This document shows positions 21,704 through 21,850 of a stretch of DNA of 64,000 nt, in pieces. Each line of letters starts with the position of its first letter. Within the stretch, counting starts at the first letter, position 1. Made by a program: the position numbers and the translations under genes. Source of the DNA: Cetorhinus maximus (lineage: Eukaryota); NCBI RefSeq assembly GCF_964194155.1, contig NC_135907.1, positions 21,204,001 through 21,268,000 on the forward strand. Reading direction: 5' to 3'. The notes under the pieces were generated by a model. The model worked only from the letters and a program-made list of their open reading frames with translations. It was not told where the DNA came from and searched no databases.

Positions 21704-21764
21704 CTCACTGGTGGTAAAGGCCAAACTCAAACAACAATCTAACCTCTTCCCGCACAAGCTCTTG

Positions 21765-21850
21765 TATTTATATCACTGGGACATCCTGCATTCACACAGG
21801 GAATGACATCACCAATGATGATTGACATTCCCCGATAGCCAGTCAGGAAT
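21765..21850 (-). promoter_or_regulatory. Core promoter of copy 3: TATA box with adjacent CRE-like and CCAAT motifs
   Basis: TATAAATA at 21772-21765, 62 nt upstream of the ATG; TGACATCA-CCAAT block just upstream. Equivalent TATA at 26141, 32866, 37359, 43563, 50942, 56332; TTTAAATA at 3554 and 11002. Confidence 0.65.

Follow-up and report, generated by a model that had tools for sequence, protein, structure and literature searches.

Short predicted leaders without an iron-responsive element in a tandem ferritin gene array of the shark Cetorhinus maximus

The window, by which is meant the whole stretch of 64,000 nucleotides of Cetorhinus maximus that was analysed, carries a tandem array of ferritin genes on its minus strand, nine of them complete with four exons and one partial. 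A canonical iron-responsive element (IRE), with a bulged C, a 5-bp upper stem, and a CAGUGN loop, is present near the cap in none of the nine leaders, and its absence from the array leaders is confirmed to be real. A 5' IRE is regarded as a hallmark of the cytosolic ferritin genes of vertebrates. It is described as lying near the cap, where IRP1/2 block ferritin translation at low iron (PMC4117605, PMC7760355), and is described as even serving to separate real ferritin genes from pseudogenes (PMC4117605). The favoured explanation, to which a probability of roughly 0.6 is given, is that the array mRNAs, being without an IRE, would provide bulk, IRP-independent cytosolic ferritin for the ovary.

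Results

Ferritin gene copies

The complete copies, all on the minus strand, have their ATGs at 3468 (copy 1, 1571–3561), 10917 (copy 2, 8142–11009), 21703 (copy 3, 19090–21703), 26072 (copy 4, 23902–26148), 32804 (copy 5, 30214–32873), 37297 (copy 6, 35105–37366), 43507 (copy 7, 40954–43570), 50880 (copy 8, 47241–50949), and 56270 (copy 9, 53716–56339). Copy 10 (61593–63522, minus strand) consists of exons 2–4, its exon 1 and leader lying past the end of the window. The frames are open in all nine complete copies, GT-AG splice sites are found throughout, and the products are 173–176 aa in length (173 aa in copies 5, 7, 8, and 9). Copy 3, with exons at 21703–21602, 20455–20309, 19703–19578, and 19245–19090, encodes 176 aa with complete ferroxidase residues, and all three of its exon joints are also present in contigs of relatives. 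The coding sequences of the copies are 93–99% identical to each other. Blocks of 3.5–5 kb are duplicated within the array at 91–98% identity, therefore the array has grown by segmental duplication.

The full set of seven ferroxidase residues, which we take to be E27, Y34, E61, E62, H65, E107, and Q141 in human H numbering, is present in six of the nine copies. A ferroxidase glutamate has been lost from the other three, through E61G in copy 1 and E27R in copies 4 and 6. In the latter two the E27R change lies inside an altered three-residue stretch (within 26072–25971 and 37297–37196, minus strand), and these copies may be ferroxidase-poor subunits of mixed shells. The pooled pN/pS among copies is 0.71 and exceeds 1 in 7 of 36 pairs, which are not independent of one another. 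Together with the loss of a glutamate in three copies this points to relaxed selection, and counts against a finely tuned role.

The same pN/pS values and substitutions, and the recent date of the block duplications, are also consistent with neutral decay of the IRE in a birth-and-death array, the copies being mostly weakly expressed or pseudogenizing and the absence of the element having no regulatory meaning. This is unlikely, however, since the frames and splice sites are intact in every complete copy, the TATA box and leader are conserved in three shark orders, and array-type contigs of relatives are correctly spliced.

Between the ferritin copies there are G-rich 25-bp minisatellite arrays (27431–28333, 38814–39615, and 52412–52494). 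A 616-aa proline-rich ORF at 26875–28725 on the minus strand is probably a by-product of the minisatellite. Another ORF, of 129 aa at 58438–58827 on the plus strand, has a CCHC knuckle and a DTG protease-like motif and is presumably a fragment of an LTR retrotransposon.

Relationship to other ferritins

The nearest named proteins are the multi-copy ferritins of sharks and rays, and the window proteins are 90–96% identical to the best multi-copy shark RefSeq match. In a tree of 45 rows, which contains no vertebrate H chain, the window copies share one clade with shark proteins (100/99). A second tree of 31 rows, also with no vertebrate H chain, places the window copies and rays in one clade (90/96), with Callorhinchus as its sister (95/97). 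Match scores to the H, M, and L chains in the PDB are close to each other, and the array copies sit in a chondrichthyan clade of their own. The window has two features of the chondrichthyan tandem arrays, full-length copies in tandem and a shared clade with multi-copy shark ferritins.

Two database records are of note in this respect. P0001 is a fused Heterodontus model whose last unit is a divergent ferritin that falls outside the array clade and apparently lies beside array copies. This unit is a candidate for the parent gene or for an IRE-bearing gene. P0048 is a 90-aa ferritin recorded under Salmonella on a 308-bp contig that clusters with the shark array ferritins, and is probably a contaminant record.

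Promoters and predicted leaders

The interval 21704–21772 on the minus strand, which the sequence-only reading had singled out, was correctly placed and spans the TATA box of copy 3 to the base preceding its ATG. The box itself (TATAAAT, 21766–21772) begins 69 nt ahead of the ATG and is common to RefSeq models of other sharks. Transcription starts approximately 30 nt downstream of a TATA box. By this rule copy 3 has a predicted 5' leader of 39 nt (21704–21742, minus strand), in which there is no IRE. The proximal promoter of copy 3 (21773–21920, minus strand) has three CCAAT boxes, a CACCC box, and a CRE-like site, all of these being consensus matches only.

The TATAAAT begins 63–76 nt ahead of the ATG in copies 3–9, being located at 26148–26142 in copy 4, 32873–32867 in copy 5, 37366–37360 in copy 6, 43570–43564 in copy 7, 50949–50943 in copy 8, and 56339–56333 in copy 9. 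With the start placed 30 nt past the TATA, the predicted leaders of these copies are 33–46 nt. The earlier estimates of about 55–70 nt from TATA to ATG and a 5' UTR of about 30–45 nt agree with this, the distance from the end of TATAAAT to the ATG being 56–69 nt. Copies 1 and 2 have a TATA-like TTTAAAT at -93 and -92 (3561–3555 and 11009–11003), giving a predicted leader of about 62 nt. The promoters can be aligned across all nine copies. By consensus matching alone, CCAAT boxes are present in all nine and a CACCC box in seven of the nine.

A consensus splice donor is found 44–46 nt before an AG in the leaders of copy 1 (~3519–3476) and copy 2 (~10970–10925) on the minus strand, and might splice to exon 2. 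A 5'-UTR intron in these copies would be only 44–46 nt, less than the minimum length of an ordinary intron, and was judged too short. Just ahead of the promoters of copies 1 and 2, at 3902–4366 and 11496–12300, are units of 155 bp and 267 bp, three tandem copies of each, which are SINE-like by eye. In copy 7, a further ATG in frame at 43528 (minus strand), 21 nt ahead of the start, could add seven residues.

Conservation of the leader in other sharks

Several shark and ray RefSeq models are mis-started, so that their N-terminal extensions are translated promoter. Ten such extensions were tested by tblastn against the window. Four of them match its TATA-leader region at E values of 1e-6 to 2e-18 (Cetorhinus P0026 and P0077, Heterodontus P0081, and Heptranchias P0179), the other six having no match to the window leaders. 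Three of the four cross the TATA position, for which codon counting gives distances to the conserved ATG of 69, 79, and 89 nt; the frame in Heptranchias is open through the TATA because the TATA has changed. Peptide readings like those given by the control IREs are absent from the four matching extensions. The window leader is most similar to the leader of a Cetorhinus model. The same TATA and short IRE-less leader are found in the Cetorhinus, Heterodontus, and Heptranchias models, and the layout is therefore old. These translated extensions, which cover few copies, are indirect evidence that three shark orders share the short IRE-less leader.

Searches for an IRE

As positive controls, 61 ferritin loci from metagenomes were used; these are invertebrate-type contigs, with no vertebrate or shark IRE among them. 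A search with the Rfam models, one of the checks that had been proposed along with the sequence-only reading, finds no IRE at E≤10 over the 64 kb, returning just five unrelated weak matches, and none is found when 401 nt around copy 1 are scanned again. The same search recovers IRE_I in 8 of 20 control ferritin loci at 22–29 bits, all under the gathering score, and is therefore only moderately sensitive.

The claim that no C-N5-CAGUGN-N5 hairpin can form in the leaders of copies 3–9 was borne out. In a pattern scan, the hairpin C-N5-CAGWGH-N5 is absent within 1 kb upstream of all nine ATGs, compared with matches in 27 of the 61 control loci. When up to one upper-stem mismatch is allowed, the whole window has eight matches on the minus strand (1.7 expected in shuffles) and none on the plus strand. 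The eight are four duplicated pairs in intronic or intergenic positions; even the closest is 2.1 kb upstream of an ATG, and the covariance model gives no score to any of them. This custom model, trained on 16 control IREs and tested on the other 45 control loci, detects 25 of these 45 at 16–38 bits, several of them being close kin of training loci. Over the window it gives seven matches, of which the best reaches 9.5 bits (E = 1) and none is in a leader.

Folding of the nine leaders is no better than that of shuffles in any case (z -1.5 to +1.4). Copies 3, 5, 7, and 9 have a bare CAGTGA 7 nt ahead of the ATG, at 21710–21705 in copy 3, without a stem. A candidate with a perfect stem in the leader of copy 6 was rejected, having a GAGUUU loop, three G-U pairs, and folding worse than shuffles.

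The IRE look-alike of copies 1 and 2

A weak look-alike had been noted just after the TATA-like box of copies 1 and 2. It is present, at 3522–3549 in copy 1 and 10970–10997 in copy 2 (minus strand), but the loop had been read in the wrong register, being CAGUUA and not CAGCAG, and copy 2 is the better match. The copy 2 element (-80) is identical to the Rfam consensus at 14 of the 5' 17 nt, the best of 127,966 positions, with a chance of about 0.001 per 100 positions in what is a post hoc comparison with three sub-windows tried; it has no IRE fold. The copy 1 element (-81) matches at 13 of these 17 nt and at 17 of 28 overall.

Against a weight matrix from eight control IREs, the look-alikes of both copies are at chance level (P 0.11–0.94). 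With the same matrix, a CAGTGA-ending site before the ATG in copies 5, 7, and 9, which is one shared site, has P of about 0.01. When the copy 1–2 element was compared with the pre-ATG element of copies 3–9, 2 of 14 comparisons were near P 0.01, at different sites. This homology is too weak to establish that both candidate sites came from a single remnant.

In isolation the look-alike folds into a weak hairpin (about -7 kcal/mol). It is not the minimum-energy fold in context, and three of the five upper pairs are possible. With a CAGUUA loop, the cross-loop C-G pair is lost. The element begins 12 nt past the first base of the TATA-like box, and its 5' arm would therefore precede a start at TATA+30. 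The look-alike was rejected as a working canonical IRE on the basis of its loop, its upper pairs, the loss of the hairpin in context, and the lack of a covariance-model match. A non-canonical IRP-binding hairpin retained in copies 1 and 2, with transcription starting ahead of the TATA-like box, would fit the consensus matches and the fold in isolation. The same defects of loop, pairing, and context, the silence of the covariance model, the chance-level matrix scores, and the position of the 5' arm ahead of the predicted start make this very improbable. It is plausible from its sequence that the look-alike is a decayed IRE. The N-terminal extensions of Pristis and Heptranchias contain VSC by hand translation, matching one reading frame of the consensus, which is a weak hint that these may hold a trace of the IRE.

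Contigs from sequencing runs

Contigs of four runs, which are guessed to be RNA, were aligned to 18800–23850; such contigs cannot give start, strand, or level. Contigs of relatives connect the four exons at the predicted sites. Among the joints listed for this region, none connects exon 1 or the leader to upstream sequence. In exon 2, array-type letters dominate X2 and X10, and a divergent ferritin dominates X15 and X1, with no level implied by these contigs. Exon 1 and the leader are uncovered in the same-species run X15, which for contigs has no bearing on expression. The loose ends in X15, X1, and X2 are a divergent ferritin by hand translation, with a DKVDPH stretch like that of salmon M, and there is therefore a separate, probably somatic, ferritin in these runs. 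Many divergent contigs from all four runs fall on repeat-like stretches at 20790–21020, in intron 1 of copy 3, and 22850–23210, upstream of copy 3.

Two records extend upstream of the coding sequence. Record 26 of relative B (depth 748) covers the window between 21742 and 21963, a span that includes the TATA, and beyond it come 220 letters unlike the window. Since the record crosses the TATA, that run contains RNA or DNA from upstream of the predicted start. Its end coincides with the predicted start at 21742, although this is a contig end and not evidence of a start. In record 2 of relative A, 21705 is preceded by 94 letters that differ from the leader of copy 3 and in which an IRE could be present. 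Both records, and the 51 joints that exist beyond those listed, would be compatible with real mRNAs that begin from a remote promoter or non-coding exon supplying a canonical IRE. There is, however, no IRE within the 64 kb, so any IRE exon would lie outside the window, with one or more intact neighbouring copies in between. With the listed joints as described above and the TATA spacing conserved, a distant start is the least probable of the explanations considered.

Discussion

Comparison with known ferritin systems

A Greenland shark preprint describes ancient ferritin clusters, the largest of which is expressed specifically in the ovary (10.1101/2024.09.09.611499). The FTL/FTH1-annotated clusters of Greenland and great white shark described there share with the window tandem full-length copies and an old expansion, and the main text of the preprint contains neither 'iron' nor 'UTR', leaving IRE loss undescribed in it (10.1101/2024.09.09.611499). 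By sequence, the window array belongs to this known chondrichthyan ferritin expansion, and it may correspond to the ovary-specific cluster. A second Greenland shark genome report reportedly also deals with ferritin copy number.

Atlantic salmon H and M ferritins have four exons and three introns (PMC4117605), the structure also found in the array genes, and the array proteins are ~67–73% identical to salmon M. All five salmon isoforms are described as having a predicted IRE with a CAGUGC or CAGUGA loop (PMC4117605), in contrast to none of the nine shark leaders. The fthl27 gene of the hadal snailfish is, like the shark array, a tandem amplification, with 14 copies (PMC10746142). That expansion is described as recent and broadly expressed, in a main text that is silent on the IRE (PMC10746142).

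Ferritins without an IRE are already known, as are chondrichthyan arrays. The snail yolk ferritin of Biomphalaria and Lymnaea is described as having no 5' IRE (PMC10799875), and like the proposed role of the shark array it is tied to egg provisioning (PMC10799875). In that description it carries both a signal peptide and an insert of 42 aa (PMC10799875), whereas by inspection the shark proteins of 173–176 aa, starting MASQ or MGSQ, have neither, and the shark genes come from a large tandem array. Schistosome ferritins are grouped with it as IRE-less and egg-linked, according to the title of a cited work. Among vertebrate paralogues of restricted expression, FTMT is described as not under IRE/IRP control, and the germline FTHL17 is represented in the mouse by Fthl17, a small multigene family (PMC7760355). 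FTMT is intronless and mitochondrial and FTHL17 lacks ferroxidase activity (PMC7760355), unlike the shark genes with their four exons and mostly complete ferroxidase sites.

No report of IRE loss in shark ferritins was found in the open-access literature, to which the search was confined, and the text available for PMC3904948 has nothing on sharks. What is added here is a controlled demonstration of IRE absence in intact, intron-bearing, mostly ferroxidase-competent genes for cytosolic ferritin, with a regulatory consequence that is probable.

Regulation of the array

The sequence-only reading had concluded that the array is uncoupled from iron-dependent translational control and is regulated transcriptionally. 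Three methods with positive controls give good support for the loss of canonical IRE/IRP control, but the data do not reach as far as 'uncoupled from iron' or 'regulated transcriptionally'. Escape of these genes from IRP repression is what we infer, and on sound grounds. The IRE is missing, therefore no IRP damping of translation is expected, and copy number and promoter activity should determine the output.

Control of mRNAs in the oocyte and the turnover of ferritin are established biology. On this basis the IRE could be gone and iron or post-transcriptional control still act by another route, such as masking of oocyte mRNA, iron- or stress-responsive transcription, or turnover of the NCOA4 type, in which case transcription would not be the only level of control. 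The in-frame upstream ATG of copy 7 is in keeping with this. Against it, consensus scans find no CPE or Pumilio site in the first 260 nt past the stop of any of the ten copies, and an ARE/MARE-type match in just one of the nine promoters. The lack of CPE and Pumilio consensus does not exclude control of other kinds, and overall such a route is about as improbable as neutral decay.

Under the favoured explanation, that the array supplies IRP-independent ferritin to the ovary, transcription would start approximately 30 nt past the TATA, producing mRNAs with leaders of the predicted lengths and no IRE. When labile iron is low, IRP1/2 would be unable to block translation of these mRNAs. Output would then be set by the number of copies and by a conserved promoter that is probably restricted to the ovary. 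The task of the array would be an iron-independent bulk stocking of cytosolic ferritin in this tissue, similar to that of the IRE-less snail yolk ferritins, and separate somatic ferritin genes would retain normal buffering. Among the shark ferritins covered here, none bearing an IRE was encountered, which counts against this explanation. Expression in the ovary is taken from the Greenland shark preprint. Shark ovary samples are described as possibly including the lymphomyeloid epigonal organ, therefore expression in the oocyte is not certain.

A broader history can be proposed as a tentative and rather doubtful possibility. Before the split of sharks and rays, a ferritin gene may have broken its IRE, of which the remnants would be best seen in copy 2, and thereby have been free to grow to an array of a hundred copies, proof against IRP, that supplies the ovary or egg with cytosolic ferritin. 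Through gene dosage and the loss of a cis element, a vertebrate would have arrived at a non-secreted equivalent of the yolk ferritin of invertebrates.

Conclusions

If the favoured explanation is true, the array is a natural vertebrate case of bulk ferritin that is independent of IRP. It would also explain how output can rise with copy number without being damped by iron sensing. The interpretation of the ferritin expansions of sharks would then shift from general iron buffering to a tissue-specific, and probably reproductive, role.
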